IMG/VR virus record: IMGVR_UViG_3300028840_006907
Span: 64,001-128,000 of that record
DNA: 64,000 nucleotides
Origin: a virus
Reading direction: 5' to 3' (one strand)
Below the pieces are notes generated by a model. That model saw only the letters and a list, made by a program, of their open reading frames with translations. It ran no database searches and was not told where the DNA came from. Below are positions 5,301-35,143 of the stretch, one piece after another. The stretch's first letter is position 1. Every line of letters begins with the position of its first letter. The translations under genes were made by a program, and so were the position numbers.

Positions 5301-6885
5301 ACTTTCTGATTTCACTAAAATGTACAATCCGTTATCAAAGACTTTATGGTTTAGCCCAAAAACCTATGAGAAGAGAGCAGAAATTGTTACCAGTGAAGAT
5401 GATCCAGCTTTAGCTTCATTGCAAAAGAACATTGCTAAGGATACAGTTTCATTTTCAAAACTCAGCATCTTCGATAAAGAATCCATTAGATCTCTGGCAA
5501 GTACCATCCGGTCAGGTTTATCAAAATTCAAAAAGGAGTTACCAAGAATGGCCTCTTTTAATCCAATCTATTTAACAGTAGAAGAAAAAGCCCTTATGGA
5601 TAAACAAGCTAAGGAAGAAGATCACTTTGAAAAACGTGTTAAATTTGTTTTTCCTGAAGGTGAATTGAATGATGCCAAAAATATGGTAACTCAGCTCAAA
5701 GAGAAGAAATTAGATGATGCATCGAAAAAAGCTCAGAAAGAATTATCAGAATTAATTAAAAATGTCACAAGTGCCTATGATGATTTCGATATAGGTAAAA
5801 TTAAAGCATTGGCAGAAAAAGAGGAGATTTCTGAATCAAAAGCTGCTGTTCGTTTAAAAAGAATAAAAGACTCATTGGCTAAATATGCTCTAAGTCAATT
5901 CATTCTTAAGTGGCAAGATGTCATAGACATGGGATTTAAAGATACTCCAAGAAAGAAAGGACCTTTGGGAGGACCGGAATCCCAAAAATATGATAAAATT
6001 TTGGAAATAATTGAAGAGGATGTACCTGAGTTATTTAAAGAGGCTCCTCCTGAGAAAGAAATAAAAGAAGCTCCTAAAGGCTTACCTACTCCTAAGGAAA
6101 TCAGAGAACGTATCGAAATGGAATTTGAAGAAGGATTTCCAGCACAAAAAGAAAGAGAATACAGAACTCTGAAGGACAAAGGTCATAAATTATTCAAAGA
6201 TCCTTCTGGGGCTGGTGGTGGCGGTGGCGGAAAAGGTAAAAGTCGCCCAAAACCTATAAAGAAACATCCTCCTGCCCATACATATGAAACACTTAAGAGT
6301 AATTTCAAAGAAGCTCTGAAAACAAAATCAGTTCATGACATAGTACTTAGTGAAATAGGCAGGTATTTACATAATGTGAGAAATTATGTGAAAGGTGGCT
6401 CTTATTTCGATGTGGATGATGTTGTTGCTGGAGTTGTCGATGTATTGAAAAATTTTAAAAAAGTCATCAAATCATTAAGAGTAACCATGGATCCAGGAGC
6501 TACTGCAGATATAAAACTGAAAGATGAAAAAGAGGCAAAACAACTTTTTAATAAATTATCAGATATTTACAAATTAATAGATATGATTGCTGCTGATGAA
6601 AGTGGGAAACCTGTTATAAAAATAGGTCCTATACCAGGTGATCTGAGTAAGATAAAAACTCAACGTGGTGAACCCGATACCTGGTTCCCGAAAGGTCTTA
6701 TGGAAGCTGTTCAAGTAAAAAAACGAGAAGAGATTGAAGAAGGAGCAAAAGAGAAAGCTCCTGAAAAGTCAGTTTCAGCAAAAAAAGTATCAGCACAATT
6801 TTTGGCTTTTAAATTAGCACATAAGTTTTCCTTTTCAGATTTACAAAAGATTGAAGGTCTGAAAGAAGATATAGATAAAAAATAA
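2341..6885 (+). CDS. giant Lys/Glu-rich coiled-coil protein (1514 aa), function unknown
   Basis: Uninterrupted 4.5-kb ORF with a Gly run GAGGGGGGKGK. The N-terminal part has two HTH-like stretches (MGFVEMAEKTGIPKSSLEEWEK; TKEIESQTDASIGQIKKLK). Confidence 0.7.
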   Translation: MYSIDDFIQTVFSYTLQKQKFFAAAERALKKNLQSYIRPDFFGTSSGDVRLDNLLVSLANRLGEADVEDKRIFLEDAVSDFVSEEKADELRAILETKLERKHKIPEELADKFISKSGLLVDEEKKEFDRVKKDMVKLISGFIYGFFENKFKEFVRAKKKKEDIGREVAPDLEVLPDSELIDQAEKEQEWQEGLTKDLFGYINKNVPEKRRYAYKMILLKRFMVAPASRMGFVEMAEKTGIPKSSLEEWEKDLGRRLAEYLSAGGLGPKFVSEGGLYKKDVKVPDYKDVFKNKENSNDFKDFMEGKQPKTGKPMSEKVKKILELFAEGKDTKEIESQTDASIGQIKKLKSTHFSPWYKEWYAEMLKDVREATERIKKALMIINGETPPPASHEKYVNMAIAKKYPLELTVTFSANYDNQDLIKESDRVDPEKDPVDFKYKHYQVKLERTSRPRIEYTFDQKLTDKGDFEGSPRSSLVIEGNPGHEGLRRRLDEYVEQEMKPEGILPYGPSVKGRKPVQIPVEYVNESLDSTKTYDGSKKRRYRGFIDFADKYKGFMVKDQPHLTRVQEESKREEKKLLPKGGKNEIRKLIQHLKENIGDEMEETTPDKKKVEVWKKQIKELQDHLKKDSEKEIVDFVSKHKERFKFAVSEERMKNVRELMKLRELVENQEQRLLQRKMKGDPKDKDTVKLKEDIATNKDKITKLEKILEETKEPFPPPESAKVQKLLKELSDLGIKDRKLEEFLTSTDLQFFVNQVQGALAKEAQDNIAGVKKNKNMSDEEKKQEYEAIERKRGVKLNKFIELFEAVPEDMKKRLEKYKKADPSGYKKLEKKHGALLNWVNNPEKALSKVKQNLSTPKTLEAPKGKQESVVPMEEEDAKYMLNWLEAQLQGFDVIGERFGQAALKAEGLSPQERVKVEKQLKDTEKEFQDLRNRIGEMEGKGKATTSEIKDLKKDIPTYMRTIEGLKSSLSDSKESPAMIMAQVLTDRLSDFTKMYNPLSKTLWFSPKTYEKRAEIVTSEDDPALASLQKNIAKDTVSFSKLSIFDKESIRSLASTIRSGLSKFKKELPRMASFNPIYLTVEEKALMDKQAKEEDHFEKRVKFVFPEGELNDAKNMVTQLKEKKLDDASKKAQKELSELIKNVTSAYDDFDIGKIKALAEKEEISESKAAVRLKRIKDSLAKYALSQFILKWQDVIDMGFKDTPRKKGPLGGPESQKYDKILEIIEEDVPELFKEAPPEKEIKEAPKGLPTPKEIRERIEMEFEEGFPAQKEREYRTLKDKGHKLFKDPSGAGGGGGGKGKSRPKPIKKHPPAHTYETLKSNFKEALKTKSVHDIVLSEIGRYLHNVRNYVKGGSYFDVDDVVAGVVDVLKNFKKVIKSLRVTMDPGATADIKLKDEKEAKQLFNKLSDIYKLIDMIAADESGKPVIKIGPIPGDLSKIKTQRGEPDTWFPKGLMEAVQVKKREEIEEGAKEKAPEKSVSAKKVSAQFLAFKLAHKFSFSDLQKIEGLKEDIDKK

Positions 6886-6923: not shown

Positions 6924-7682
6924 TTGGAGACATCTGTGAAGTATAGCGTACTTGTACCCTACTATAAACGCCTAGGGCACCTACATAATACCTTTATTTC
7001 CTTTCTACACCATTATTCAGATAGAAATGATTATGAGGTTGTCATAGCAGAAGATTATAAAAATGTCCAGAATAAAAAAGACCATGACGGTCTATCAGAA
7101 ACCATTGAGAAATTCCGTGAAAAAATACCGATAATTCATTTAACTCTTTCTATGGAAACCTGGAATCCAGCTCATGGTTTTAATGAAGCTGCAAAGTGGG
7201 CTTCTGGTGAATATTTCGTTGTAACCAATCCAGAATGTTTCCATCAAGTGAACATACTGGCTGGACTCGATAAAGAATTTGAAGAAGACCCCAATGTCTA
7301 TGTTGTATGTGGTTGTATGAATTATGTCCGTTGTAATTTTTTTATTAAAAACTTTAATGATCTAAATGGAAAATTTCAGAGATGGTACCAACACTCAATA
7401 CATAGAGCAGCCCACTATCATTTCTGTTCAGCTATTTCAAAACAGAATTGGGTAAAAATAGGAGGATTCGATGAAGACTTTGCTATGGGTATAGCCTATG
7501 ATGATGTCGATTTTAAATTAAGCATTCAAAAAGCCAAGATACCCTTTCATATCCGGGATGACCTTCTTACTATACATATTGACCATGGTTCCTTCCCATC
7601 TCCTCCAAATGCTCAGAAATTAGTTAATCGAAATAGAATCACCTATCAAAGAAAATGGGAAGGAAGTAATGAATCTTACTAG
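6924..7682 (+). CDS. family-2 glycosyltransferase
   Basis: YSVLVPYYKR N-terminus, EDY and DDVDF acidic motifs. The start may be GTG at 6936, 5 nt after GGAGA. Confidence 0.7.
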   Translation: METSVKYSVLVPYYKRLGHLHNTFISFLHHYSDRNDYEVVIAEDYKNVQNKKDHDGLSETIEKFREKIPIIHLTLSMETWNPAHGFNEAAKWASGEYFVVTNPECFHQVNILAGLDKEFEEDPNVYVVCGCMNYVRCNFFIKNFNDLNGKFQRWYQHSIHRAAHYHFCSAISKQNWVKIGGFDEDFAMGIAYDDVDFKLSIQKAKIPFHIRDDLLTIHIDHGSFPSPPNAQKLVNRNRITYQRKWEGSNESY

Positions 7683-9762
7683 TTATACCGCAGCCGACAG
7701 TATCCCGATAAAATTGATTAAGAACTTTAAATTGTTAAAGTCCATGACAACAAAAGGAGTCATCTTACCAATCCATGTCCAGTTCATACCCACAAATAGA
7801 TGTAACATGAAATGTGGATTTTGTAGCTGTGCTGAAGATGACAGAAAAACAGAAATGTCCCTTAAAAATGCTAAGAAGATCATCAGAAAATTAAAAAAAC
7901 TCGGTACTCAATCCGTAACCATCACCGGAGGAGGAGAACCACTCCTTTATCCTCATCTCCAAGAATTGTTTTCTCTGTTTAAAGATGCCGGGATAAAAAT
8001 CGGTTTTGTTACCAATGGCCTCTTATTAGGTAAATGTACCTATGAAGATGTAACCTGGTGTCGGATTTCTAATTCTGATGAAAGAAAAATGGACATGGAC
8101 TATTATCACACAATAGCTTATGCTGTTGAAGATAACCCAAACGTGGACTGGGCCTTTAGTCATGTCGTTTCTCCAAAACCAAATATCTCCGAAATAAAAC
8201 GGATCATAGAATTTGCCAATCTCCATGATTTTACCCATGTCCGATTAGTAGCTGATCTATTGAATTATAAAGAAGTAGATTTAATGCAGTTAAAAATCAC
8301 TCTTCGAGATGAAAATGTCGATGATGATAAAGTCATCTATCAAAGTAGAAATACCCCGCTCAGAGGCGGAGACTGTTATATATGCTATCTTAAACCCATG
8401 ATAGGGGCTGACTGTAATGTGTACGCTTGTTGTTTAGAGGCTAATGAACCTGTATTAATCCAGAGAAATAACGAAAGGATGTATTTATCTATAAAGGATG
8501 TTGTTCCAGGGGATTATGCTTGTGAATATGGAAAGATTTTAAATGTGTTTCATAAAGAGGGTGAAGAAGGCTTGGAAATAGTTTTGCAAAATAATAGGAC
8601 TATTTATGTTTCGAAAGATCATCTTATGCTTAAATTGACAAACCCTGAAATTAGACATAAGAGAAAGAAGTTATTATCTGACTATGAATTAGATACAATA
8701 GAATCTTCTGAATTAAGAATTGGAGATTTACTTCCGGTCAAATATAAATATGATATTAGTGAAATAAAAGAAGATACTATATCTGAAGAAGAAGCAGAAT
8801 TAATAGGATATTATGTAGCTGAAGGTTGGTCCAATGAACGAACTTGTATAGTTGATAAAAAATATCCTACTAGAACTACCACTATAGGATTTATGCTAGG
8901 GAAAGAGTCAAGAGAATATATAAGAAGATTTGAAGAAATTTGTGATATTTTGAATCTAAATTTTTCTATGACTGAACGTAGAACTGGTATGCAGTATCAG
9001 ATAGGTGCACATAAACCCTACGATGACTTAATTGTACACTGTGGTAATAAAGCAGAATTAAAAAAGATCCCTCCTTTTATTTTAAACGGCTCTGATAAAA
9101 TAAAGTGGAAATTTATTCAAGGCTATTTTGGAGGTGACGGGAATTTTCAAACTCCTTCTAAAAGCTATGATGGTTTTAAAATGAGAATGAGTACTGTCAG
9201 TAGACAACTAGCTAATGATATAATTTATCTCTTTTGTACTTTAAATATTCATGCTTCTATGAGAGTTGAGAGACGTGAAGGAAAAATGATAATAGAAGGA
9301 AGAGAGGTAAATGCTAAAGATCGGTATCATATAAATATAGGGGGAGCCTATAATTTAGAAAAAGCCCCATTCCTAAATGTAATTCAAACAAAAGAAAGAA
9401 GTCCTAAAAGAGCCCTCGGTTTTTTGAAAGATGAGGATAAGGGCATTATGTTTGTACCAGTTAAAGAGATCAGAGAGAAAAAGTTAGGAAAATTAGTAGA
9501 CATTCAAGTGGAAGGTTCAAATAAATTTATATCTTCATTTGGTATAATAGTTCATAATTGTGGCGTCCAGTATGCTCTTAAAAAGCCTTCAAAGAATCTT
9601 CCTAAGAAACTGAGCCTAGGAAGTGCTTTTGATCTTGAGAAGATAATTGAGAACAGTAATAAGCCCCTGGACGGGAGCATGTGTTATCGATGCTATTATA
9701 GTAATTATAACAAGATACTAGGATCCATCCTGGATGATACCGATCATATGGAGTTTGTATGA
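7669..9762 (+). CDS. radical SAM enzyme interrupted by an intein
   Basis: CNMKCGFC (CxxxCxxC) and a GGGEPLL SAM motif. The extein is 321 aa after removing residues encoded by 8431-9558. Confidence 0.85.
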   Translation: MNLTSYTAADSIPIKLIKNFKLLKSMTTKGVILPIHVQFIPTNRCNMKCGFCSCAEDDRKTEMSLKNAKKIIRKLKKLGTQSVTITGGGEPLLYPHLQELFSLFKDAGIKIGFVTNGLLLGKCTYEDVTWCRISNSDERKMDMDYYHTIAYAVEDNPNVDWAFSHVVSPKPNISEIKRIIEFANLHDFTHVRLVADLLNYKEVDLMQLKITLRDENVDDDKVIYQSRNTPLRGGDCYICYLKPMIGADCNVYACCLEANEPVLIQRNNERMYLSIKDVVPGDYACEYGKILNVFHKEGEEGLEIVLQNNRTIYVSKDHLMLKLTNPEIRHKRKKLLSDYELDTIESSELRIGDLLPVKYKYDISEIKEDTISEEEAELIGYYVAEGWSNERTCIVDKKYPTRTTTIGFMLGKESREYIRRFEEICDILNLNFSMTERRTGMQYQIGAHKPYDDLIVHCGNKAELKKIPPFILNGSDKIKWKFIQGYFGGDGNFQTPSKSYDGFKMRMSTVSRQLANDIIYLFCTLNIHASMRVERREGKMIIEGREVNAKDRYHINIGGAYNLEKAPFLNVIQTKERSPKRALGFLKDEDKGIMFVPVKEIREKKLGKLVDIQVEGSNKFISSFGIIVHNCGVQYALKKPSKNLPKKLSLGSAFDLEKIIENSNKPLDGSMCYRCYYSNYNKILGSILDDTDHMEFV
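8431..9558 (+). mobile_element. LAGLIDADG-type intein (376 aa) inside the radical SAM gene
   Basis: N-terminal junction YAC|CLEANEPVL; block B SKDH. Two LAGLIDADG motifs (LIGYYVAEGW, FIQGYFGGDGN). C-terminal junction GIIVHN|C. Confidence 0.85.
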
Positions 9763-10310
9763 TCCGTTATAAAGAGATCTATGAACGAGTATTTGACATA
9801 CCTCATTATTCCAGAAACCAAGACCGAAAGATTACCTGTTCCCAAGTACATAACTATTTAATAGGAACTGAAAAATCTATCATTGATATAGGATCGGGGC
9901 GTGGGCCTGTTCTTATAGAACTGCTGAATCATTTTCAGAGATCTCAGATATTGTCTTGTGATTTAAAAAAGTTCCATGATATTGAAGTCCCGTTCCTGAA
10001 ACTGGATTTAACTGAGTTCAAGGATCGGGAAGCAATATTGAGGGTCTTTCCACAGTTTGATTTCTTAACCTGTTTTGATGTCCTGGAACATATCGAGCGA
10101 CAGGAATTGCACGCTATTCTCAGATTCTTTAAAGAGCTATCTAAAAAACATCTAATTATTGTAGCAAATCACTCTGATAACTGGGGCCAGGAATTACATT
10201 TAATACAGGAGCCCATGGACTGGTGGGAGGAAAGTTTTGGTGAATATTTTAAGATATTGGATAAAAAGAGTATTCATAATGATAGAGCGTATGTATTCCA
10301 TTTAGAATGA
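9759..10310 (+). CDS. class I SAM-dependent methyltransferase
   Basis: IIDIGSGRGPV motif I; FDFLTCFDVLEHI motif. Confidence 0.7.
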   Translation: MIRYKEIYERVFDIPHYSRNQDRKITCSQVHNYLIGTEKSIIDIGSGRGPVLIELLNHFQRSQILSCDLKKFHDIEVPFLKLDLTEFKDREAILRVFPQFDFLTCFDVLEHIERQELHAILRFFKELSKKHLIIVANHSDNWGQELHLIQEPMDWWEESFGEYFKILDKKSIHNDRAYVFHLE

Positions 10311-11705: not shown

Positions 11706-11983
11706 TCTTCCAGACCTCCCTTATTGAGAGTATCATTTTTAAGCGTTAAGTTCAAGTCTCTTAATGACATACATGGAACATCCCGTACTCGTTTGGAGTT
11801 CCATATAGGGCATACAGTATGATTACACCTATTAGGACCTAACCTACACTCGACATTAAAATGTCCAGGTTCTCCGGCATAGAGGAAATTTCGTTCTATG
11901 CAGTGCGCCTGGAATACCTGAAAAGGCATTATCTTTTCGACACTTACCCCGTTTTTATGTGATTTATTATTCATATTTTTCAT
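11618..11983 (-). CDS. Cys/His-rich hypothetical protein
   Basis: The track ORF extends to 12127, but that part overlaps CRISPR repeats. The likely start is MKNMNNK at 11983. Contains HC...ECRLGPNRCNHTVCP. Confidence 0.45.
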   Translation of the reverse strand: MKNMNNKSHKNGVSVEKIMPFQVFQAHCIERNFLYAGEPGHFNVECRLGPNRCNHTVCPIWNSKRVRDVPCMSLRDLNLTLKNDTLNKGGLEEWDDKKNLCKTRSRKLRSTLKKKEKPVTT

Positions 11984-12025
11984 TCTAGGAATGTAAAGTA
12001 TTAGAGGATTATTAAGGGGAGGGAA

Positions 12026-15018
12026 ACCCCGCTCAGATGCAGGGAAGAAGATTTCATTAAGAAGTTTTAGGAAGAGCCCCGCAGAGGAGGAACCTCGCAA
12101 GATGCGGGGAAAAGGAACTTCAGGCAATTGGCTGGGATTAGCCCCGCGAAGGTGCGGGGAAAACAGTTTCCATGAACTATATTAGGGAGAGCCCCGTTGA
12201 CACGGGGAAAAACCCGTCTTTACTTAGTGAGATCGAGGAAGGAACAGCCCCGTTGATACGGGGATAAAATAATATGACTTTTACGAATCCTCTAGGGACA
12301 GCCCTGCAGAGTGCAGGGAAAAGTAACGTCTGGGAATTGTTTAGGATTAGCCCCGCGAAGGTGCGGGGAAAGCCATAGATTTTATATTGACACAGGAAAA
12401 ACCCCGGTATAGTCCGGGGAAAAGTACGTAATCAAGATGTAAGAGGATTAGACCCGGCGAGTCCGGGAAAAGATTGGCCCAATCACTATTAAGTAGGGTG
12501 GGATAGCCCCGCAGAATGCAGGGAATAGATGCCTCACTTCATACCACTGCGTCAACCCCAGTAGAGTCCGGGGAACATGAGTGTAAATCTCTGTCGTAGG
12601 TTCAACCCCGGAGAGATCCAGGGGAAATGGGTACAACTTTGTGTACAAGGGGTAGCCCCGGAGAAATCCGAGGAAAATGAGTGTAAATCTGTGTTGAGGG
12701 TCCAGCCCCGCTCAGTGCAGGGAATATTAAGGGTCAAAACCGGTTGCCCCTGCGTCAACCCCGGTGAAGTCCGGGGAACATGAGTGTAAATCTCTGTGGT
12801 AGGATCAACCCCGCAGAGTGCAGGGAAAAATTGAACTTTTTAATCAACCCTGTAACAGCCCCGGAGTCAGTTTTGACAAGTCCGGGGGAATATCACTTCG
12901 TAAAGGAGTGGCTGTCAAGGGGGCAACCCCACAGAGATGTGGGGGAAAGTAAGCCAACGTTCCGGCATAGGCATAGCCCCTGAATTTACAGAGGGCAATT
13001 TTTCCAGTGTCCAGAAGAAGATGCAGGGAGAACCCCGGAAAGTCCAGGGGAAAATGTGTCACAGAACAACTCTTTGTGATCTCCAGGGTGAACCTCGCAG
13101 AGGTGCGGGGGAAAAGTGTCAATGAATACCAGTATGAGTCAGCCCCGGTATAGCCCGGGAATAATTACTTCTAGTCTGATAGAAGGTGCAACCCCGGGAA
13201 GTCCGGGGAAATCGGTCATAGCCATCTGGACCAGGAAGAACCCCGGTGAGATCCGGGGAAAAGGACGTTTAAATCCTGACATAGTAGCTAACTGAGGCGT
13301 AGCTCCGGTCGGGTCAGCCCTGCAGAGAGCAGGGAACAAACATAGGTAATAAATCGGCACGTGACAGCCCCGCAGAGAGGCGGGGATATATAGCGTGAGT
13401 TGCAGGGTAAGGTTCAACCCTTGTTTACCAAGGGAAAAATACCGGCAGATAAGAATTTAGGATGACCCCCGGTGAAAGTCCGGGGAAAATAATTAATACG
13501 CAAAACAGCAGGGCCAGTCCCGCGAGATGCAGGGAATGTTCAGCCAGTTTGTGTAATATTTCAGGAGACGGTGGTGCAACCCTGTCAAGGACAGGGATAT
13601 GCAACATCTGTGGCTCTACGAGGATCAGCCCCGGCAAGTCCGGGGAATTATCTTTTTATAAATGCCAAAAATAACAGTTGGGAGGGGCCAATTCCGCTGA
13701 TGCAGAAAGACATTTCATAATTAATATATTTATGGAAGAGCCCCGGTGAAATCCGGGGAAGTCAAGTAATTACAGCTCGCTGACCACTGGGGGTAGCCCC
13801 GGTAAGATCCGGGGAAAAGTTTGTTTTGAAACAAACGCTAGGAACAGCCCCGCTCAGGTGCGGGAGAATCACTGCATATTTGGTTAATGGCCCCCCTGAG
13901 TCAATCCCGCTCAGGTGCGGGGAAAATAAAGAGATAGACTAATTCAATATGCAGGAAGAACCCCGCTATATGCAGGAAAATTTAAAAAGTATGGATATCT
14001 CCTTGAGTCAACCCCGGAGATCCAGGGAAATGTAGGCACTCGTTGTCCTTTGTCGAAGTGTGAAGGGCAAACCTCGTTGATACGAGGAACAAATTTAGTT
14101 TTACTTTTGAATAAAAGTGGTCAAGCCCCGCTCAGGTGCAGGGAATAGATAAGTATACCGACGATAGCCAGGACAGCACCTGTGGTTTAGCCCTGCATGT
14201 GCAGGGAATAGTTGAGTTGAAGATTGAAGAAAAAGATAAAGTAGGGTCAGCTCTGCATGTGCAGAGAATAGCCTTTCTTCAAGCGTTGACTTGGGAGTAG
14301 GTGGGGATCAGCCCTGCACATGCAGGGAATAGAATGGTGAATCAAATTCCATTTTGTCAAAGAACGGCGACAGCCCTGCCAGTGCAGGGAATATGATTTT
14401 AACGATGGTAAAATTGGGAAGGGGTCAGCCCTGCACATGCAGGGAATAGTCGCTAGTTCAAATCCAATCGCCCCGACAGGATCAGCCCTGCATACGCAGG
14501 GAATAGAAAATACTGACGATAAACTAGCGATATGGGATCAGCCCTGCATACGCAGGGATATAGCTTGACGAATGGCCGTTTTAATGCCAGGAGTAACCCC
14601 GCTGCGAGGAATAGTCATTTCAAATATATAGGTAAAGCCCCGCGAAAGAGCGGGGGTATAATATGGCGGATTTTGTTCTATTGGTGGAATCCGGGCCATC
14701 CCCGTAGATTGACACGGGGAGATCTTTTAGAAATCTACCAAGGTGCCTTTCCGGAGTCATCCCCGTATATACGGGGGAGATTTCAATTCAGGGAATTTCG
14801 GTACAAAATTGGTCGGTTTATCCCCGTATACACGGGGAATATTGTTTCAATAGGGCATAGCAGATCTAGGATCGGGGAATCCCCGCAGGGGCGGGGAACA
14901 TCTCGGATTTATTAATCAAATTCAAACGTTTTTCGGGGAATCCCCGCAGGGGCGGGGAACATTGTTTTAAGAGGTGGTAGTTACCTCGTAGGGGAATCCC
15001 CGCAGGGGCGGGGAACAT
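12026..15018 (-). CRISPR. CRISPR array 1 with highly heterogeneous I-E-like repeats (~55 units)
   Basis: Three identical leader-proximal repeats, GGGGAATCCCCGCAGGGGCGGGGAACAT, start at 14874, 14935 and 14991. Read on the minus strand they are ATGTTCCCCGCCCCTGCGGGGATTCCCC, close to the type I-E consensus GTGTTCCCCGCGCCAGCGGGGATAAACCG. Hairpin units then continue every 49-62 bp down to ~12026. Confidence 0.9.
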
Positions 15019-15057
15019 ACTAAGTCATAATGCCATTCAAATCAAAGGTTTATAGGA

Positions 15058-15112
15058 ACCCTAATTTTCTACCAAAGAAAAATGTACTTGTCATGTATAA
15101 ATGTCAAAGAGC
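15058..15112 (-). promoter_or_regulatory. CRISPR leader, array 1
   Basis: accctaattttctaccaaa..gtacttg.c.t.tataaatgtcaaagagc is nearly identical to 22626-22677. The minus-strand reading contains TTGACA (15102-15107). Confidence 0.7.
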
Positions 15113-15127
15113 GTCAGAGAGAAATCC

Positions 15128-17359
15128 CTAGTGGATATACCGAATCCATTCATATCGAATTTTCATCGTTTTATAAGGAGCTTTTTTTCTCCCTGGAAAT
15201 ATGTTTCCTTCAAAAAGGAAAAATTTTTGAACAATTTTAAATTCAGCGTTTGATGGTGTCAAGCTCTGTGGTGCATAATCCGAACGCCAGTAATTATTAC
15301 AATATATAAATTTTTCTTCTCTGTCTTTTTGTATAAGGCCCGGAAACACCACTAAAACTATCTTTTCGTTTTCAATAACAATATCCCCTTGATAAATAGC
15401 TATTTCTAAATCCAGACCATCCTGCTCTATCACACGAGCATATTTCGAGAGTTTCCCATCAATCTTTACTTTAGCTTTAGGGGGAATATCAAAAGTTATC
15501 CATTCACCTTTTATGTCCTTAATGCTTTGAATAGGTTTTTTAACTGGAATTTCTTGAAAGACATGATCTTGGTATTCTGCTTTTTTAAGGATTTCTCCAT
15601 CTTTTTCCATATTAAGCAATAAAGCCTTTTCCATGATGTCTTTAAGTTCATAGAGATCTTTTTCAGTTAAGGGCTCTTTTGTTCCGAATACGATGGAACC
15701 TACATTCTCTAATCGAGCGATTTTATCAAAACCCTGTTTCCGGACAAAGTCTATGGTAATATGTTCTATTTTTCTATTTCTTGAAAGTCTTATGATTCTT
15801 ACAAATTCAGTTTTAATTGTGTCTTTGAAATTATCAAAACTTAAATGATCTTCTACGTAGGGATGATACAAATCCGCTATAAGACTTAATAAAATTTCTA
15901 TGTCTTCAGGTTTATCCTGTTTACGGTTGTAATCATAAGCTTTAATAATTTCTTGTCTCATTTCCATTAATATATCAGGAGCCATTATTTCACTTAAACT
16001 GGTAGATCCTTTTTTGTCCCGATAAAAGGGAGCTGTTGGAAGTAAGGGAATCCTGATAGCAGCACAAAGTTCTGACATTACAATTGAGGTTAAGAACAAA
16101 TTCAATCTGTCTGAATATAATGCCCTGATATTATTACGTTCTTCTTTTTTAATAGGTGGAACATAAATGTATAACCATATTTTATCTTTTTTAGGGTAAC
16201 ATCTGAAAATACGAAACATTATTTGAGAGAAGGTCACCTGACTCTTTCCATAACTTGTATTATGTAAAACAGCAGCAGGAGGCCAATCATACCCTTCATA
16301 GAATATTCTGCAAGATACGGCGACCCAGTATTTTTTATGATTACGTCTCAATAACTCTCTATTTTTTTTCTGAGTTTCCGGTGTGACTAAATCCAGTACT
16401 TTGGACGCAGGATATATTTCGTGAATAGCTTTTAAATATTTTTTAAGGGTTCCTTCCTCTCTGAACCGGTTCCCCATGTCAGGTAATATGACAATGTGTC
16501 TTTGATCTTTGTGCTCTTTCATATATCTAATGATCTGAGTAAGGGGATCTTTCCTATAGTGAGTGAAACGGAAATTGAATTCTTTGATTTTTATGATTGA
16601 GAGATAGTCATTTAATGGGATAACCCATTTTTCAAAATGATGTTTATAAGCATTGGGGACTATTTCTCCTCTGTCTGTGCGGTGGTAAGTAGCTGTATAA
16701 AAATTTACGTTACAAGTAGGTTCATGGATGGTACATACATCTCTGACAAAATCACCCAAATGAGTGGAATCTAGTGGGGTTGATTTTGAATGATGGCATT
16801 CATCTACATGTACAGTTAAATTTCTAAGGGCTTTCTTTTTTTCATAGTTGGTTAATTTTTCCCAGGTCATGACAAACCCTCTATGGGTAGCTGTAGCAAT
16901 AGGGCCTGTTATATGTTTTTCATTGTACGGGTATTTTCGAGGATCTGCTAAAAGGAATTCTTTAAGTCCTTTAATGGATTGAGGGTTTTCACTATTGAAT
17001 TTATGTTCTTTTGGTACTTCCCACAATCTTACCATACCTTTATATTTGATTTTTATTTGTCTATTTTGGGATCTGCAGAAATTTTCACCTATTTCTATTG
17101 TTGGTGCGATAAAGATATGTTTTCGAGTATTTTTAGATATTATGATTTCATCCAGGGATATGCATACTGCTAAAAAAGTTTTGCCGACTCCCCCTGGTGC
17201 ATCAAAGATCATGTATCTGAATTTTTTCCCATATTCTTTTGCATTGCATTGCCAGCCAGAGGGTATCATGATCCCTGATTCAAGTTTTTTATTATAGGTA
17301 CCAAGGTCAACCGGTTCTATTTTAATAGATTGCTGGAAAAGCGGTAATAGCTTTTTCAT
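15128..17359 (-). CDS. SF2 DExH helicase, Cas3'-like position, no HD nuclease domain
   Basis: Motif I APGGVGKT, motif II DECHH, motif III TAT, motif VI-like QIMFRIFR. Only ~55 aa precede the Walker A, so there is no room for an HD domain. Last gene of the cas operon. Confidence 0.75.
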   Translation of the reverse strand: MKKLLPLFQQSIKIEPVDLGTYNKKLESGIMIPSGWQCNAKEYGKKFRYMIFDAPGGVGKTFLAVCISLDEIIISKNTRKHIFIAPTIEIGENFCRSQNRQIKIKYKGMVRLWEVPKEHKFNSENPQSIKGLKEFLLADPRKYPYNEKHITGPIATATHRGFVMTWEKLTNYEKKKALRNLTVHVDECHHSKSTPLDSTHLGDFVRDVCTIHEPTCNVNFYTATYHRTDRGEIVPNAYKHHFEKWVIPLNDYLSIIKIKEFNFRFTHYRKDPLTQIIRYMKEHKDQRHIVILPDMGNRFREEGTLKKYLKAIHEIYPASKVLDLVTPETQKKNRELLRRNHKKYWVAVSCRIFYEGYDWPPAAVLHNTSYGKSQVTFSQIMFRIFRCYPKKDKIWLYIYVPPIKKEERNNIRALYSDRLNLFLTSIVMSELCAAIRIPLLPTAPFYRDKKGSTSLSEIMAPDILMEMRQEIIKAYDYNRKQDKPEDIEILLSLIADLYHPYVEDHLSFDNFKDTIKTEFVRIIRLSRNRKIEHITIDFVRKQGFDKIARLENVGSIVFGTKEPLTEKDLYELKDIMEKALLLNMEKDGEILKKAEYQDHVFQEIPVKKPIQSIKDIKGEWITFDIPPKAKVKIDGKLSKYARVIEQDGLDLEIAIYQGDIVIENEKIVLVVFPGLIQKDREEKFIYCNNYWRSDYAPQSLTPSNAEFKIVQKFFLFEGNIFPGRKKAPYKTMKIRYEWIRYIH

Positions 17360-17628: not shown

Positions 17629-18273
17629 TTAATAAGATTTATACGGTGCAATAAGCATCATACCACATCCGAAACCTTTACTCTTACCAATTCCATTATA
17701 AATAGTATTCACAAAAAGATTTTTATTGACTACCTGAAGGACTCCTCGTAAATCAATACTGAAAAAAGATACAACTTTACCATCTTTTTTTTTGAATTTA
17801 CAGAATTGAAAAGATTGAACGGAATGCTTTTGAATCATATTTTTAAAACCGTAACTTTGGCCACGTTTCTGAAGCCAATTCTTTGAGGATTCGTGAGCAA
17901 TGAAATTCCAATTATAGGGTTCATCAAGAACTTTCATTTCATTTGCCAGATCCGTCATGATTGAAACCTTTTTCCTGGTTTTCAATTTACAAACTTCGGC
18001 ATTGAGTCTGAGATCGTATTGAAGAAATATTCCAGATTTTAAATTATTTAAATCGAATACTTTTGTTTGTGTAGTGTATTCGTCCTCTGGAGGATTTGGT
18101 TTCTTTTTTGATATGATATAAAGTTCACCATTATAGAGATAATAAAGGAAATCTCTTACCCTGTTAGATCTTTGATCACCAAAAAATTCCCAGACTTTTT
18201 GATGAAGCTCATATATACCTTCGGTGGGAGAATATCTTCTCAAGCTGTCACTGTAAATTTTACTCAGAAACAT
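17629..18273 (-). CDS. cas6e: Cas6e (CasE) crRNA endoribonuclease
   Basis: MFLSKIY...YELHQKVWEFF...RDFLY and C-terminal GIGKSKGFGCGMMLIAP parallel E. coli CasE (MYLSKV...LHQGLW...GIGPAKSMGCGLLSLAP). AGGAGG lies 6 nt upstream of the ATG at 18273. Confidence 0.85.
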   Translation of the reverse strand: MFLSKIYSDSLRRYSPTEGIYELHQKVWEFFGDQRSNRVRDFLYYLYNGELYIISKKKPNPPEDEYTTQTKVFDLNNLKSGIFLQYDLRLNAEVCKLKTRKKVSIMTDLANEMKVLDEPYNWNFIAHESSKNWLQKRGQSYGFKNMIQKHSVQSFQFCKFKKKDGKVVSFFSIDLRGVLQVVNKNLFVNTIYNGIGKSKGFGCGMMLIAPYKSY

Positions 18274-18910
18274 TCGATACCTCCTTCCATCCCATATACT
18301 CAATTCGGGATCGGTATTGTTTGGGACCGGTTACCTGATCAAAACGTTGATTGCTTTTTACTATTTTGATACTGGTATCGGTACCTTCCCAAAATATTCG
18401 GTTCTTTTCACGCCCTTTAAGACTACCATTAAGAAATTCAGGAAGAGAGTACTGTTCAAACGCCTCTGAGAGGCTCTCAGCCTTAACGATCTTAGGATCG
18501 GGTGGTATGTCATAGGAACAGCATTTCCTTCCAAGAAAGGGGGTATAGATGGGCCTATTAAGGGCTTCCATTATTTTCTTCAAAGTATAGGGACAGTTTT
18601 CATTCTCCCATATACATACGGTAAAGATGGCATTGACTAGGTAAAATCTATTCGAGACAATTCCTGGTCCGACTCTGACAATATGGAAATCTTTTAGAAT
18701 AGTACCAGGATTATCTTCCCTACAGGCAAATCCTAGTTGGGCAATCTGAGTTAATTCTTTCACCATTTCTCTTGAGACTCCAAGAGAAGCAGCGATTAAC
18801 CCGCTTACGCCAGATTTGGTAGGGTGATCATCTGTCTTTCGGGTATTACCCTGAAGGGGGAGACCCCAGGCGGATAGAGTACCCGAAAGAAGGAATAATA
18901 AATAATTCAT
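18260..18910 (-). CDS. cas5e: Cas5e (CasD)
   Basis: MNYLLFLLSGTLSAWGLP...TRKT..HPTKSGVSGLIAASLGVSRE parallels the Cas5e N-terminus (LRLAGPMQAWG...PTRSGLLGLLGACLGI). Confidence 0.85.
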   Translation of the reverse strand: MNYLLFLLSGTLSAWGLPLQGNTRKTDDHPTKSGVSGLIAASLGVSREMVKELTQIAQLGFACREDNPGTILKDFHIVRVGPGIVSNRFYLVNAIFTVCIWENENCPYTLKKIMEALNRPIYTPFLGRKCCSYDIPPDPKIVKAESLSEAFEQYSLPEFLNGSLKGREKNRIFWEGTDTSIKIVKSNQRFDQVTGPKQYRSRIEYMGWKEVSNVSE

Positions 18911-18933: not shown

Positions 18934-20019
18934 TTAGAAATCGATGAATTTAATAAGTTCGTTAAGTGATCCTTCTTTTGTGAGTACATTCAAGATCCTA
19001 TAATCCATTTCATGGTAACATGAATCAAAACTACTTTTCATGTCAAGAAGGGCTTTGACAGCATTTTCCATAACCGCAGGACCTTTAATAGGAGTATGGA
19101 AGGCTTGACAGAGACTTCGTGGGGCAGTTGGAGCTTTTTCGATCATAACGAATGCTGGCCATGTTTGACTATCAGCACATCTGTTTTTATTAGCTGAGGG
19201 GGATGAAGTGGTTAATACTTCGACTATCTGTCGGATGGTTTTGATAGCTAGTTCTTTATTACCTTGAAGATTTTTCGTTAAGAGCTTGGAATTGATTACA
19301 AAGAAACTATAATAGACACCCTGGGTAAAATAGAAATTATCTAGGTGACCTGAACCTTTGGTTCCTTCTAATCCAAGGTTATCGGTAGCTGTAAAATAGT
19401 CGGTTTGGACAGATCCTATATCATTGACAGTAAAAGCGAAATTTGAGGACAGTGAAGCTTCAACATCATATTGGGGCAGTTTTGCAATCATGCGACCGGT
19501 AAGGGCTGTTCTGATTCCTGTATTTTCTTTTAAAAAGAAGAATTCTTGATCAGTGGGTTTATGCCCCTCAATAATTTTGTCAATCAGTTCTTCAATATGT
19601 TGTCTTTCGCTCGGTTGAATTTTAATGGTTTCGGTTTTAAGAAGATCAACCTTTTTTTTCTTTTTCTTTGTATTTTTATCATCTTCTTTTTCAGTGTGCT
19701 TTTTGATATCAACAAAAGTACCAATAAATTTAAATGCGTATTCTTCAGCTTTTTTAGGTGATATTCCACCATCAATTAATCTTTTCTCGACATATTTTCC
19801 AATAAGAGGAGTCTGAAGACCTATATCGATTTCGCACCTTTCAAATAGAGCCTTGTTTAAATCATATTTTCGATTTTGTGAAGACGAATAACCTCGGTTG
19901 GTATCATTAAGTTTCATTGTTTTAGGACGTCCGTCCTGGCCTCGGTTTATGCTAGATACAGCTACACCAGTGAGAAGGTGAATTAACCAGTAGGGGTCTT
20001 TAATAATAGTTTTAGACAT
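18934..20019 (-). CDS. cas7e: Cas7e (CasC/Cse4) backbone subunit
   Basis: LIHLLTGVAVSSINRGQDGRPKT...RGYSSSQNRKYDLNKAL parallels CasC (HVLISHSPSCLNRDD...RISSQSLKRAMR). 361 aa, like CasC. Confidence 0.85.
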   Translation of the reverse strand: MSKTIIKDPYWLIHLLTGVAVSSINRGQDGRPKTMKLNDTNRGYSSSQNRKYDLNKALFERCEIDIGLQTPLIGKYVEKRLIDGGISPKKAEEYAFKFIGTFVDIKKHTEKEDDKNTKKKKKKVDLLKTETIKIQPSERQHIEELIDKIIEGHKPTDQEFFFLKENTGIRTALTGRMIAKLPQYDVEASLSSNFAFTVNDIGSVQTDYFTATDNLGLEGTKGSGHLDNFYFTQGVYYSFFVINSKLLTKNLQGNKELAIKTIRQIVEVLTTSSPSANKNRCADSQTWPAFVMIEKAPTAPRSLCQAFHTPIKGPAVMENAVKALLDMKSSFDSCYHEMDYRILNVLTKEGSLNELIKFIDF

Positions 20020-20045: not shown

Positions 20046-21989
20046 TTATATGTTATTTGAATATTCTCTTTCCCAGTAGAACTTGACATCTTTGCTCCAG
20101 TGGGCATACCCTTCCATGAAACTGATGATGTTAAATCCTTCCATTCGAGAAACAACATCAGCAAATACTTTCCAGTTTTTTTGTATATCCGTTTTATTGA
20201 AACTCATCATTTCGTCAACATGTCGGCGGTTAATTTTTTGAGAACCCATTTGGGCACCGAAAGATTGAGAAAAATCCAGATCCTTAGCTTTAAAAACAAT
20301 TAGTAGAAGAGGTACGAAAAGAGTCTTCATATCTTCTGATCTTAAAGCAGGGAAATGCATAGACATTTCTAAAATAAAATTCAAATAAAGGTCTTCATGT
20401 TTTAAGATATCGATGTCAAAACATCGGGTAAATACCCTATGTTTTTCTGTATTTCTAATAGTCCCGTACCAGGACAGGAATGGTTTGGTAAAGACCTGGT
20501 TAAAATGAGGTAGGTTTAATTTCCTGTATTCGATATGGGCGAAATTCTCATATTCTAATGGTTGTAGTTTAAGAGGTTTAACAACTTTTTTATTTAAGGT
20601 TTCGATAAATTGTTCCTTAAAATATTTCTGTAAACCTCTCTTTTCAGTACCTACATTTTTTTCAAATGTATCGAAAGCTTTAACTACCATCTTTTCCAAC
20701 CATTTTTCGATATTATGATTCTTGAGAACTTCATAGAAGTATTCTTCAGTTTCTGTCAGAAATTCGTGAAATATTAAAGGTTCGGTTTTATCAGTTCCCC
20801 AGAACTTTCTTATATAATTACAGGTATACCATCCTATAAGATATGAGTGTTCTCTGATATTTAAAGTAAACGCACTATCTTTATAGAGTTCTTCTGGGAT
20901 ATCGAATTTATTTTCCTCCCATCCAAAGAGTTTGGCTTTAGCCATATTATAACCGAAAGTCCATAATCCGAAATCAGTTATTCCAAGATATTCTCGGTTC
21001 TCCATGAAATGACTCACCACTAAAGCTGGAGTTAATTTTTTAGCTGGTAGTAGATAGGTCACAAGATCGAGATGGCTGGTAAAGTCCAGGGGTTTCCGGA
21101 AACCTGTTTCTTTGCCTTTTATAATGGGTGAAAGGATATGACGTGGTTTGACATAACAGTTACCATAATTCCTCGTTTTTATCTTTCTAACCATTAATTT
21201 GGAATGATTGCCACAGATAGTACATGATTCATCAAATTTATCAAAGATAAGATGAATACGTAGAGGCATTTCCCAGAGCGGGTAATAAGGATTCATCTCA
21301 TCCAGGGAAACAGTAGCTTTGTTTTTACTATCAACGGTATCACTAAGCCATGGGAGTGTTACACCTTTTGGATTTCCTCCGAATTCAAACATGGTCTTTT
21401 TAATAATAACATTAGACCATATTGTTTCCCATAACGTGGAACCGGTAATAATAGTGGTAAGAGAACCATTGGCACCGGCTGTTATCGAAGTACGGTATCC
21501 TTGGCCTCCCATAATGGCACTGAGTTGATTAAGATAAAGGGCAATTGTAGCACAGGATTGGCAAAAAGTATGTATCTTTGCTTTTTGGAAGAAATCTTTA
21601 CCAGCTTTAATTGTCGCTGTCCCTGGAGTATCAAAGAGGAGATTACCAACATTTACGATTCTTTCAAGGTCCTGTGGCCGTTTATCCTGTAAAAAACGAG
21701 GACCTTTGCCATCTAGTTCAAAGAGTTTTGGTTTAAGTTTTTCTAGGATGGCTTTTTGGTTTGGTGCTTTTTTGAATAGTTTTTTCCATTCTTTCTTACT
21801 TGTAGGAGCAAGATAAGTGTTGAAAAAACCTATGAGAAGCCGTACACCTACAGCATTGAAATCGGGTCTACCGAAATCGAGAGCTATTATAGGGTTATTA
21901 GGTTTTGAAGTTATTTTGTAGGGTGGAATGTTTTCCCTGGTACCGTCTTTTCGGATGACGGGGATCCAAGGGTCCTTAATTACATTCAT
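20046..21989 (-). CDS. cas8e: Cas8e (Cse1) large subunit with fused Cas11/Cse2-like C-terminal domain
   Basis: N-terminus MNVIKDPWIPV and CQSCATIALYLNQ...GGQGYR parallel Cse1 (NWIPV; CGGCTAIALFNQ...GGGFK). The C-terminal ~170 aa (SFGAQMGSQKINRRHVDEMM...HWSKDVKFYWEREY) parallels Cse2 (SLGRALANSGRINERRIFQLI...WWGKRERQQLLEDF). There is no separate cas11 gene. Confidence 0.8.
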   Translation of the reverse strand: MNVIKDPWIPVIRKDGTRENIPPYKITSKPNNPIIALDFGRPDFNAVGVRLLIGFFNTYLAPTSKKEWKKLFKKAPNQKAILEKLKPKLFELDGKGPRFLQDKRPQDLERIVNVGNLLFDTPGTATIKAGKDFFQKAKIHTFCQSCATIALYLNQLSAIMGGQGYRTSITAGANGSLTTIITGSTLWETIWSNVIIKKTMFEFGGNPKGVTLPWLSDTVDSKNKATVSLDEMNPYYPLWEMPLRIHLIFDKFDESCTICGNHSKLMVRKIKTRNYGNCYVKPRHILSPIIKGKETGFRKPLDFTSHLDLVTYLLPAKKLTPALVVSHFMENREYLGITDFGLWTFGYNMAKAKLFGWEENKFDIPEELYKDSAFTLNIREHSYLIGWYTCNYIRKFWGTDKTEPLIFHEFLTETEEYFYEVLKNHNIEKWLEKMVVKAFDTFEKNVGTEKRGLQKYFKEQFIETLNKKVVKPLKLQPLEYENFAHIEYRKLNLPHFNQVFTKPFLSWYGTIRNTEKHRVFTRCFDIDILKHEDLYLNFILEMSMHFPALRSEDMKTLFVPLLLIVFKAKDLDFSQSFGAQMGSQKINRRHVDEMMSFNKTDIQKNWKVFADVVSRMEGFNIISFMEGYAHWSKDVKFYWEREYSNNI

Positions 21990-31316: not shown

Positions 31317-32270
31317 TTATTCCTTAAAATAAAATTTAGATTTTAAATTATCGTAAGCACTCCAATTACCTTCAATAATACGATTAGTATATATAGTACT
31401 TAGATTGTATTCAGAGTCGATTATATCAGCTTTAGATAAAAGTATAGCTTCAGGAGTCATCGGGACTACTGCAGCCCCTAAATCCAGAGAACCGTGATGA
31501 CTTAATATTAAATGACCTAATATTTTTTTCATTCGGTTTCTTTCTTCCGGAGGAGCTTCTAATGCGTTTATGATTGGTATAATATTAGTATAACTTAAAT
31601 TGAGATGACTATGCAATCGTCCTATATCAGTCATTTCAATAGTCAAGTCATATGTATAGGAAAACATTTTTCCGTGATCATGAAGAAAAGCTCCCATGCA
31701 AATGATAGAAGGATCTATTGGATAAATATAACAGAAAGAGGAACAGATCTTCGTTACACATAAAGTATGCTCTAATAGACCGTGTAGATAAGCGTGATGG
31801 ACGTTACCCTTTCCTCCAGGGCACATTTTAAATTTATGCACAAATGTTTCATTATTTTTAAATTTATCCCAGAGATCTCTCATATATTTATTTTTAACTT
31901 TATCATCCATTATTTGAACTAGTTCAACCCACATTTCATCGGGATCATGTGGTGAAGTAGGAAGGAAATCTACAGGATTATAAGGATTTGTTTCTTCAAT
32001 TGAAGATACAATGATTTGATTCTGACCTTGATATACATTAACTTTCCCTTGAATACGACAAACTTTAGCATTTTTAACTATTTCGTAATAAGTATCTGCA
32101 TGATTGAAAGCGGTTGCTGCTATCTGTCCTTTTTTATCTCTCAACTCAAAAGTTAGAAAATTACCTTTTGAAGCGTTTTTGAATGGTCTTAGTGAAGCGT
32201 CTGCTATAACGAAGATTCCATCTATATCTGTTCCACTACTCAATGTTAATATATCTGCTGTGTTTACCAT
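31317..32270 (-). CDS. YhaM-like OB-fold plus HD-domain 3'-5' exoribonuclease
   Basis: N-terminal OB-fold-like region, then HHAYLHGLLEHT and FLHDHGK HD motifs. 317 aa. Confidence 0.6.
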   Translation of the reverse strand: MVNTADILTLSSGTDIDGIFVIADASLRPFKNASKGNFLTFELRDKKGQIAATAFNHADTYYEIVKNAKVCRIQGKVNVYQGQNQIIVSSIEETNPYNPVDFLPTSPHDPDEMWVELVQIMDDKVKNKYMRDLWDKFKNNETFVHKFKMCPGGKGNVHHAYLHGLLEHTLCVTKICSSFCYIYPIDPSIICMGAFLHDHGKMFSYTYDLTIEMTDIGRLHSHLNLSYTNIIPIINALEAPPEERNRMKKILGHLILSHHGSLDLGAAVVPMTPEAILLSKADIIDSEYNLSTIYTNRIIEGNWSAYDNLKSKFYFKE

Positions 32271-34425: not shown

Positions 34426-34502
34426 TGGTACCCCAATCAGGACTCTAACCTGAAATCTTTGGCTCCGGAAACCAACGCTTTATACAATTAAGCTATTGGG
34501 GC
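34426..34502 (-). tRNA. tRNA-Arg(CCG)
   Basis: Hand-folded cloverleaf: acceptor GCCCCAA/TTGGGGT, anticodon loop TTCCGGA, T-loop TTAGAGT, CCA encoded. Confidence 0.85.
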
Positions 34503-34511
34503 ATTATAAGA

Positions 34512-34586
34512 TGGCGGTGCGTAAGGGAATCGAACCCTTGCCAGGAGATCGACAGTCTCCGGTCCTAACCACTGAACGAACGCACC
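34512..34586 (-). tRNA. tRNA-Asp(GTC)
   Basis: Acceptor GGTGCGT/ACGCACC, anticodon loop CTGTCGA, T-loop TTCGATT, CCA encoded. Confidence 0.9.
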
Positions 34587-34782
34587 GTATTTTTATTAAT
34601 CAATTTTTTTATTTCCGATAAAAAGACCGCAGTCGCATTGCCGAGCCATTTTCGTTTTATTCTTTATTACAATGCCTATTGCTTTAATAGGCTTTTTACA
34701 AGTGTTGCAAATATTTTGCTGTGTCTTTTTGTCATGCTGTTTCACTGCTGTTTTAGCCATTACTTGTACTCCTTAAATGTTA

Positions 34783-34856
34783 TGGCAGGGACGGTCAGAT
34801 TCGAACTGACATCGCCGGTTTTGGAGACCGGGTGCTTGACCGTTAGCGACGCCCCT
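34783..34856 (-). tRNA. tRNA-Trp(CCA)
   Basis: Acceptor AGGGGCG/CGTCCCT, anticodon loop CTCCAAA, T-loop TTCGAAT, CCA encoded. Confidence 0.85.
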
Positions 34857-35062
34857 GTATTGACAAATTTTTCATGATTTGAACCATTCACTACAACCTT
34901 CGGCTAGTTCTAATAAATGAACACAAGGTTTTGTTTCTTTTGCCAGAACACAGCCACACACTGTACAAATTACCACAGCAGGTTTCAAATCATGTTTCTC
35001 AATTTCAGCGAATGCTTTCACTATATCATTCACTATATCATTCATTTTTTCTCCGAATTATC

Positions 35063-35135: not shown

Positions 35136-35143
35136 TTGACTTA

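Follow-up and report, generated by a model that had tools for sequence, protein, structure and literature searches.

Spacers in arrays of CRISPR (short palindromic repeats, clustered and regularly interspaced) are normally private, fast-turning records of invaders. In the canonical type I-E system a 29-nucleotide (nt) repeat, made up of a hairpin and an 8-nt handle, is combined with 32-nt spacers into 61-nt units. CreA and CreR are regulatory CRISPR RNAs (crRNAs) with degenerate repeats and short or partial guides, by which Cascade binds without cutting, their target being the promoter of a toxin or cas gene within the cas locus, while the CRISPR-associated transposons of types I-F3 and V-K have inherited guides, with atypical repeats, matching conserved chromosomal genes. 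The CRISPR systems of huge phages usually lack Cas1 and Cas2; they include an I-C variant with a helicase for Cas3, their arrays are compact, with a median of six repeats, and some of their spacers match host genes, for which repression was proposed (Al-Shayeb et al. 2020, PMC7162821). The Cascade of Escherichia coli carries fewer Cas7 subunits on shortened spacers, interference being kept above 20 nt and priming at 14 nt (PMC5159557). The locus described here lies in a stretch of 64,000 nt (64 kb, referred to as the window) of the virus record IMGVR_UViG_3300028840_006907, and by its effector genes and repeat architecture it is called a type I-E variant, not a standard member. The promoter-distal part of its array holds a 19-nt spacer in three versions, which sequence comparison identifies, securely in our judgement, as a guide that is a sense copy of the codons for the catalytic-tyrosine motif of XerC/XerD-type recombinases.

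The recurrent guide and its match to tyrosine recombinase genes

The array and the segments on which the argument is built are as follows.

12019-15018, minus strand: type I-E-like CRISPR array of 55 units, U01 (leader end) to U55, from the array parse
12800-12782, minus strand: guide X1 in U40, ACCACAGAGATTTACACTC; ACC ACA GAG ATT TAC ACT C, encoding T T E I Y T
12697-12679, minus strand: guide X2 in U42, TCAACACAGATTTACACTC; TCA ACA CAG ATT TAC ACT C, encoding S T Q I Y T (Q-type)
12597-12579, minus strand: guide X3 in U44, ACGACAGAGATTTACACTC; ACG ACA GAG ATT TAC ACT C, encoding T T E I Y T
12547-12610, unstranded: copy of a 64-nt duplication, with handle, X3, U45 hairpin, handle and 4 nt; 5 of 64 positions mismatched against the other copy
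12750-12813, unstranded: the other copy, with handle, X1, U41 hairpin, handle and 4 nt; repeat family D7
12101-12176 against 12310-12385, minus strand: second duplicated pair, U53 and U49; repeat family D10, hairpins identical (CCCCGCaccttcGCGGGGctaatcc)

The initial annotation of this DNA had reported one spacer three times, at 12579, 12679 and 12782, and this count holds: the pattern GAGTGTAAATCT[CG]TGT[CTG]G[TA][AG]GG has exactly these three matches, all on the plus strand, and for a 21-nt version with up to three mismatches 0 are expected (100 window shuffles). That annotation had, however, used the strand that is not transcribed; as read from the minus strand, the spacer has a length of 19 nt. 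The predicted direction of transcription is shown by the I-E-like repeats on the minus strand, by the conserved leader and by the decay of regularity from the leader end. Each of the three guides is preceded by an 8-nt handle and followed by the next hairpin. Read in this direction the guide consists of the sense-strand codons of T-T-(E/Q)-I-Y-T, the catalytic-tyrosine (Box II) motif, and X1 differs from X3 at guide position 3 only.

One genome per prokaryotic species was scanned with WCNACASAGATTTACACTCA, which covers X1, X2 and X3; exact 20-nt matches in this species-representative set number at least 120, where chance would give ~17. Among the matches listed, 118 of 120 lie at ...LLGHxxxx directly followed by TT(E/Q)IYTH, the remaining two seem to be C-terminal fragments of such sequences, and all 107 of the 107 full-length open reading frames (ORFs) match XerC, XerD or integron-integrase models (E<=1e-10). 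The same listed matches come from most bacterial phyla and some archaea; most of them look like chromosomal XerC/XerD genes, the E-type ones being mostly from Bacteroidota, a weak hint at the host, and the exact 20-mers of X1, X3 and X2 occur 17 times, 4 times and once. The TT(E/Q)IYT stretch is nearly the only part of these genes that is conserved at the nucleotide level across bacteria. A search of viral contigs with a 17-nt core returned seven matches, six of which look like chance, while one (L006) led to integrases: its frame is the C-terminal end of Phage_integrase (PF00589 positions 131-169 of 172, E 7e-14).

Relatives of the locus were found through homolog searches with Cas7e and the helicase; they are few and all come from other samples. 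A search of IMG/VR by Cas7e revealed no close relatives, its alignment-based scan giving relatives of 25-33% only, and the scan of a single metagenome gave one 1.8-kb contig, without an array. In the related loci the gene order is the same and the arrays are likewise heterogeneous. The guide recurs, together with its handle, in three distant relatives (L010, L013 and L018), whose Cas7e or helicase is 55-66% identical.

L010: ACAACAGAAATTTACACAC; 2 of 21 mismatches against the window, 0 expected by chance
L013: ACAACAGAAATATATACCC; TTEIYT
L018, at 3566: ACAACGCAAATATACACTC; ACA ACG CAA ATA TAC ACT C, encoding TTQIYT; a second, probably decayed copy lies beside it (3515)

When 139 spacers of four arrays were compared all against all, the six best pairs were all from the recombinase-guide family. 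The six guide sequences vary at columns 1, 3, 6, 7, 9, 12, 15 and 18, that is, at 6 of 6 third-codon positions against 2 of 13 others (Fisher P 0.001), and they encode TTEIYT (X1, X3, L010, L013), STQIYT (X2) or TTQIYT (L018). The initial annotation had seen the array as growing or reshuffling by duplication and recombination. The spacer itself is not reshuffled debris: it is retained in four phages with nearly only synonymous changes and equals XerC/XerD-type active-site codons, and its three occurrences resemble codon variants of a single conserved, family-wide guide. Like X2, of which it is likely the ortholog, the L018 copy has a Gln codon and a handle of the CTGG(A)CC form, and its decayed neighbour has the CTGATCC handle in common with X1. 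These resemblances, modest as evidence, suggest that the pair of E-type and Q-type guides may predate the split of these phages.

Some other spacers are conserved as well. The spacer of U39 (12831-12850, minus strand; GGGTTGATTAAAAAGTTCAA), which adjoins X1, is common to L018 (3270-3291), the region around it being 87% identical over 45 nt to L018 3262-3306 (E 1e-7), and those of U30 (13348-13367) and U48 (12374-12393) are common to L011 (7391-7416 and 5561-5587), all three together with their handles. Among the differences in the other conserved or duplicated spacers, 8 of 10 fall at positions 3, 6, 9 and so on (P 0.003), which hints at the same codon-phased design. In L013 the array is placed between cas6e and the helicase gene; at 2371-2694 it has six identical canonical repeats (CTATTTCCCGCGTGCGCGGGGATAAACC, 61-nt units) with degenerate short units on either side, one of which carries the recombinase guide.

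With regard to the origin of the copies, the earlier proposal of a ~62-nt duplication with about five mismatches was accurate: of the 64 positions of 12547-12610, 5 are mismatched in 12750-12813. The identity of the X1 and X3 segments covers the handle, the spacer, the hairpin that follows (loop included), the handle after it and 4 nt more, and it stops abruptly on both sides, a weaker match extending over 12535-12630 and 12738-12833 (79% of 96 nt). Since the hairpin loop, the next handle and the four bases are shared, a recent segmental duplication of DNA, of about one unit, is shown. The flanks of X2 do differ from those of the other copies, as had been stated, being only 70-75% identical to them (offsets 100 and 103), near the general repeat-repeat level; X2 is not a reshuffled copy, however; it is a Q-type variant in its own right, for which L018 has a likely ortholog. 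In the second duplicated pair the spacers of U53 and U49 are AGC CAA TTG CCT GAA GTT C and AAA CAA TTC CCA GAC GTT A, which differ mostly at every third position. No further spacer pairs were found within the array over shuffled controls. The wider claim, that the array grows by duplication and not through Cas1-Cas2, stands in part: X1/X3 and U49/U53 are duplicated and no Cas1 or Cas2 gene was found in the 64 kb, but only 2 of ~54 spacers can be recognised as members of duplication families, and the overall growth of the array is therefore not explained by duplication. For copies 1 and 3 the idea of a duplication is correct, without being the main story.

Between X2 and X3 lies the spacer of U43 (12629-12647, TGTACACAAAGTTGTACCC; hairpin 12656-12673), which is 12/19 identical to X2 and self-foldable and may be a decayed fourth copy. 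Twin plus-strand ORFs starting with MSVNLC (12577-12783 and 12780-12983), antisense to the array, had been called spurious in the initial annotation, and rightly so, as antisense by-products of the duplication. They were rejected as genes because the variable sites are first codon positions in the plus frame, a pattern that is not a coding one; in addition, L013 lacks the ATG and the middle copy stops after six codons.

Searches with the rest of the array gave little. The whole array had no match to GenBank phages at E<=1, no spacer had a target within the window, and a search of the other spacers for recombinase motifs found peptide 5-mers at background (15 spacers against 12 expected). Two other conserved spacers gave 20 and 44 matches to viral contigs, with no consistent gene family. 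Self-regulation was considered for X1, which matches 15 of 19 positions at 15272-15254, a promoter-like site (~0.2 expected by chance), and was rejected, the site being absent from the helicase 3' ends of L018 and L011.

Array, cas operon and neighbouring genes

The array occupies ~3 kb of short GC-rich hairpins directly after a helicase gene, downstream of a Cas8e-Cas7e-Cas5e-Cas6e-helicase operon and on the same strand; in the unit parse U01 is at 15013 and U55 at 12027. The features upstream of it are the following.

15019-15127, minus strand: array leader with the conserved CTCTTTGACAT motif (TTGACA at 15107-15102), from alignment with relatives
15128-17359, minus strand: helicase of superfamily 2 (SF2), 743 amino acids (aa), in the place of Cas3; PF04851 ResIII E 8.9e-7
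17629-18303, minus strand: Cas6e/CasE; TIGR01907 E 3.9e-34, PF08798 E 5.9e-32
18260-18910, minus strand: Cas5e/CasD; TIGR01868 E 1.7e-35
18934-20019, minus strand: Cas7e/CasC backbone subunit; PF09344 E 1.1e-52, TIGR01869 E 2.4e-45
20046-21989, minus strand: Cas8e/Cse1 large subunit, 647 aa; TIGR02547 E 1.6e-33, PF09481 E 4.6e-48, PADLOC Cas8e E 3.9e-55

The leader, 110 nt from the helicase stop to the first repeat, is matched by that of L011 (71% of 125 nt at 15119-14996, E 1e-15), and its CTCTTTGACAT motif is present also in L010 and L018. Three leader-end repeats read ATGTTCCCCGCCCCTGCGGGGATTCCCC, and U04 reads TATTCCCCGTGTATACGGGGATAAACCG on the minus strand, resembling the E. coli I-E repeat. 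The regularity of the repeats falls with distance from the leader end, most of them being 60-75% identical to each other. The hairpins are heterogeneous between units, with pairing kept by compensatory stem changes (at stem position 4 there are 30 C-G, 11 U-A, 8 U-G and 6 G-C pairs), a count to be read with the caveat that the hairpin finder selects for pairing. In nearly all 55 units T2, C6 and C7 of the E. coli handle ATAAACCG are retained in the 8 bases that follow the hairpin (pattern yTnnnCCn). Around the guides there are six minus-strand hairpins within 12556-12825 (U40 12825-12809, U41 12776-12759, U42 12722-12706, U43 12673-12656, U44 12623-12606, U45 12573-12556), and those of U41-U45 appear in the centroid RNA fold. 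No Rfam family matched the array at or below the gathering score.

Units of the array fall into three length classes, 49-51 nt (n=19), 54-57 nt (n=13) and 59-62 nt (n=11 of the 55), with matching spacer lengths of ~19-20, 25-28 and 30-34 nt, and a period-6 test on the unit lengths gave P ~5e-4. The same three classes (~50, 56 and 61 nt) are found in the array of L011 (5016-7560). The footprint of Cas7 is 6 nt; the ~6-nt steps would thus be consistent with Cascade complexes of 4, 5 and 6 Cas7 subunits from one array.

Several of the Cas assignments can be set against model cut-offs. Cas8e scores 116 bits on TIGR02547 (cut-off 70), its C-terminal ~270 aa being without a family assignment; Cas5e and Cas6e are over the NCBIfam cut-offs, and Cas7e is over the Pfam cut-off (180 bits) and under the strict NCBIfam one (156 against 178). 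The interval between cas8e and cas7e has no separate Cse2/Cas11e gene. In the helicase, Pfam and PADLOC detected helicase motifs only and no HD nuclease domain, and its similarity to the Cas3 helicase is weak (PADLOC E 0.006); it adjoins the Cascade genes also in L011, L013, L018, L019 and L020. A scan of 76 ORFs in the window, which covers 64 kb of the 389-kb contig, revealed no Cas1, Cas2, Cas4 or HD-Cas3, no Cas1 or Cas2 occurs in any of the related loci fetched, and no transposase family was found among the window ORFs scanned with Pfam or PADLOC.

A protein with an OB-fold and an HD domain is encoded at 31317-32270 (minus strand), 9 kb from the cas operon. One of 49 scanned ORFs gave a weak PADLOC match to Cas3 (E 9e-4), the ORF not being assigned; the OB-fold and HD protein is the obvious candidate for this match and might be an HD nuclease acting in trans. 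The more distant relatives L019 and L020 keep Cascade and the helicase and have two added genes without a family match, one of ~201 aa before the helicase (9396-10004 and 9399-10004, respectively) and one of ~110 aa after it (12289-12618 and 12307-12639), which might represent the nuclease that is missing or some other partner.

Directly after the array lies a Cys-rich ORF of ~87 aa (MNNKSHKNG...CIERNFLYAGEPGHFNVECRLGPNRCNHTVCPIWNS..., 11735-11995, minus strand), which is found in the same place and on the same strand in L010 (~8653-8900) and L018 (~3750-4040) and has no Pfam or PADLOC match. A plus-strand gene at 2341-6885 encodes a Lys/Glu-rich protein of 1514 aa, with a counterpart of 1540 aa in the same neighbourhood of L018 (7585-12207). 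An intein carrying a LAGLIDADG homing endonuclease splits a radical-SAM protein at 7669-9762 (plus strand), and the set of ORFs that contains this protein gave viperin-like and homing-endonuclease matches in PADLOC, the ORF not being assigned.

The window is part of a contig of 388,651 bp (~389 kb) from metagenome 3300017963 of the Joint Genome Institute (JGI), which is taken to be a huge phage. It contains three clusters of transfer RNA (tRNA) genes (34426-35822, 53795-55328 and 60768-63431), with 21 tRNAs in all, and a transfer-messenger RNA (tmRNA) gene at 47873-48282; tRNA clusters and a tmRNA are typical of huge phages.

Proposed working of the guides and competing explanations

The reading favoured here, to which we give a probability of roughly 0.6, is that the spacer is an inherited, truncated gene-family guide, varied at wobble positions, which would be used via Cascade and of which an old pair of E-type and Q-type versions would have been kept by selection. 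We infer the guide function from conservation. Cas6e, the enzyme expected to cut the precursor RNA after each hairpin, would release crRNAs of ~50 nt (8-nt handle, 19-nt guide and 21-23-nt hairpin), and these would load a short Cascade with ~4 Cas7 subunits instead of six. The complex would pair with the template strand of recombinase genes, either chromosomal ones of the host or those of mobile elements in the same cell, and the outcome would be either a block or exposure to the helicase and a putative nuclease, with damage. X2 would cover the Ser/Gln variant of the recombinase genes, and the one recent 64-nt segmental duplication would have added X3. Candidate targets in nature are the chromosome-dimer resolution genes of the host or the integrases of rival elements.

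Several features of the guide can be understood in this way. Limited to the conserved stretch, a single guide can serve the whole gene family, and a short guide would be useful since a full 32-nt one would enter the variable C-terminal tail of the recombinase. The I-E Cascade flips out, and leaves unread, guide positions 6, 12 and 18. The conserved C6 and C7 imply an 8-nt handle, and so positions 6, 12 and 18 would be the unread bases here; as the guide begins at a codon boundary, every second wobble position would then be hidden on an unread base. X1 and X3 differ at seed position 3, the wobble position of the first Thr codon, and would therefore recognise different gene variants.

Some observations weigh against the proposal. 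The three bases upstream of the genome matches, where a protospacer-adjacent motif (PAM) would lie, are heterogeneous. Integrases of cultured phages rarely match, the 36-mer of X1 having one weak match in INPHARED (GenBank phages), and for the remaining 51 spacers no target was found in the viral-contig, GenBank-phage, window and peptide searches. A guide of 19 nt is at the lower edge for interference in E. coli. The crRNA is in sense orientation and cannot pair with messenger RNA; it pairs with the template strand, which is less effective for blocking elongation. Finally, no nuclease partner was found in the 64-kb window of the 389-kb genome.

The strongest competitor, which we nevertheless consider unlikely, is a neutral history, in which a spacer once acquired from a recombinase gene was copied by slippage or unequal recombination in a decaying, non-functional trailer of the array, so that the recombinase match would tell of its origin and not of a present function. 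The position of the units, far from the leader and among degenerate repeats and shortened spacers, would agree with this, as would the demonstrable segmental duplication, the resemblance of U43 and L018 3515 to decayed copies, and the fact that Cas1, Cas2 and a nuclease were not found. However, spacer and handle persist in four phages whose Cas7e or helicase is only 55-66% identical, while the neighbouring spacers have mostly diverged past recognition, and the variation is almost wholly at synonymous positions, whereas neutral decay would be expected at all positions alike. The compensatory changes in the hairpins also argue that the distal units may still be processed.

Independent acquisitions appear less probable again. 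Cas1-Cas2, encoded elsewhere in the phage or by the host, would have recaptured a favoured protospacer from different recombinase genes; the copies indeed differ as different recombinase genes do, the repeats flanking X2 are unlike those of X1 and X3, and the scan for Cas1-Cas2 covered the window, with ~325 kb of genome beyond it. New I-E spacers, though, are added at the leader, the first repeat being copied along with them, whereas these are units 40-44 of 55, with diverse repeats. The sequence shared by X1 and X3 downstream of the spacer (hairpin, loop, next handle and four bases) marks a DNA duplication, the spacers are 19 nt long, against a length of 32-33 nt measured by the I-E integrase, and Cas1 and Cas2 are missing from both the window and the related loci fetched.

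There is very little to recommend the view of the array as a decoy, whose hairpins would be RNA anti-CRISPR mimics that sequester Cas6e or Cascade subunits from an I-E system of the host, the sequence between them being irrelevant. Many heterogeneous I-E-like hairpins at non-canonical spacing are what such a decoy would offer, and phage-borne mimics of this kind, as solitary repeat units, were reportedly described by Camara-Wilpert and colleagues in 2023. Yet the phage's own Cascade is encoded directly upstream, the leader is conserved, the spacers are conserved too, in a codon-aware manner, and the unit lengths change in ~6-nt steps, as expected for Cas7 loading. An assembly artefact, by collapse or expansion of a repetitive region with a 50-nt period, is the least credible explanation and unlikely in itself, since the JGI contig and the Logan assembly, which possibly come from the same reads, agree base for base over the array, the copies have diverged (74-92% identical, with little to mis-join), and matching copies exist in a related phage from another sample (L018).

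If the gene-family guide proposed above is real, it would amount to germline-encoded, broad-spectrum CRISPR targeting of the DNA-conserved stretch of a near-universal enzyme family, with a guide conserved across divergent phages in place of a private record. It suggests that a giant phage may interfere with chromosome-dimer resolution or with integrating rivals. The same proposal would explain features that look like decay, namely the short spacers, the heterogeneous repeats with hairpins kept, and the near-identical spacers, as codon variants, and it would give a design rule for gene-family guides: a start on a codon boundary and a short length. More tentatively, and with somewhat less than even odds in our estimate, the whole distal array might, in this phage clade, be an inherited library of short family-level guides, selected, duplicated, wobble-tuned and codon-phased, and not an immune memory; through a short Cascade and with no acquisition machinery, the phage would then act on the XerC/XerD or integrase genes of any host or rival element.

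Comparison with known systems

The locus shares with the canonical I-E system of E. coli K-12 the genes of Cas8e, Cas7e, Cas5e and Cas6e and the CCCCGC...GCGGGG hairpin followed by a ATAAACCG-like handle, and some of its leader-end units have 61 nt. It differs in having a helicase and no Cas1/Cas2 or HD-Cas3 in the window, no separate Cse2 gene, repeats that vary by unit, spacers of 19-35 nt in three length classes, and several spacers conserved between distant relatives.

Degenerate repeats and short conserved guides are also known for CreA/CreR, but no target inside the cas locus was found here, the best match (15272-15254) being at chance level and absent from relatives. The homing guides of the I-F3 and V-K transposons are similar in being inherited, having atypical repeats and matching a conserved chromosomal gene. 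Here, in contrast, there is no transposase in the 76 ORFs, and the presumed target is a family motif that recurs in many genes of each cell, as opposed to one attachment site. RNA anti-CRISPRs are solitary repeats without cognate cas genes, whereas the array of this phage has its Cascade genes, and a leader, directly upstream.

The stepwise shortening of spacers, with fewer Cas7 subunits, recalls the complexes of Kuznedelov et al. (2016, PMC5159557). Those were engineered, while the three length classes reported here are natural and occur in one array (and in L011). The systems of huge phages described in PMC7162821 are likewise phage-borne, and have in common with this one that Cas1/Cas2 were not found (in the window) and that, in a type I variant among them, a helicase is in the place of Cas3. 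That variant is of type I-C, and the arrays described have a median of six repeats, whereas this is an I-E variant with 55 units; unlike in those systems, the guide is shared by relatives, and what it matches is the motif of a protein family, not one genome.

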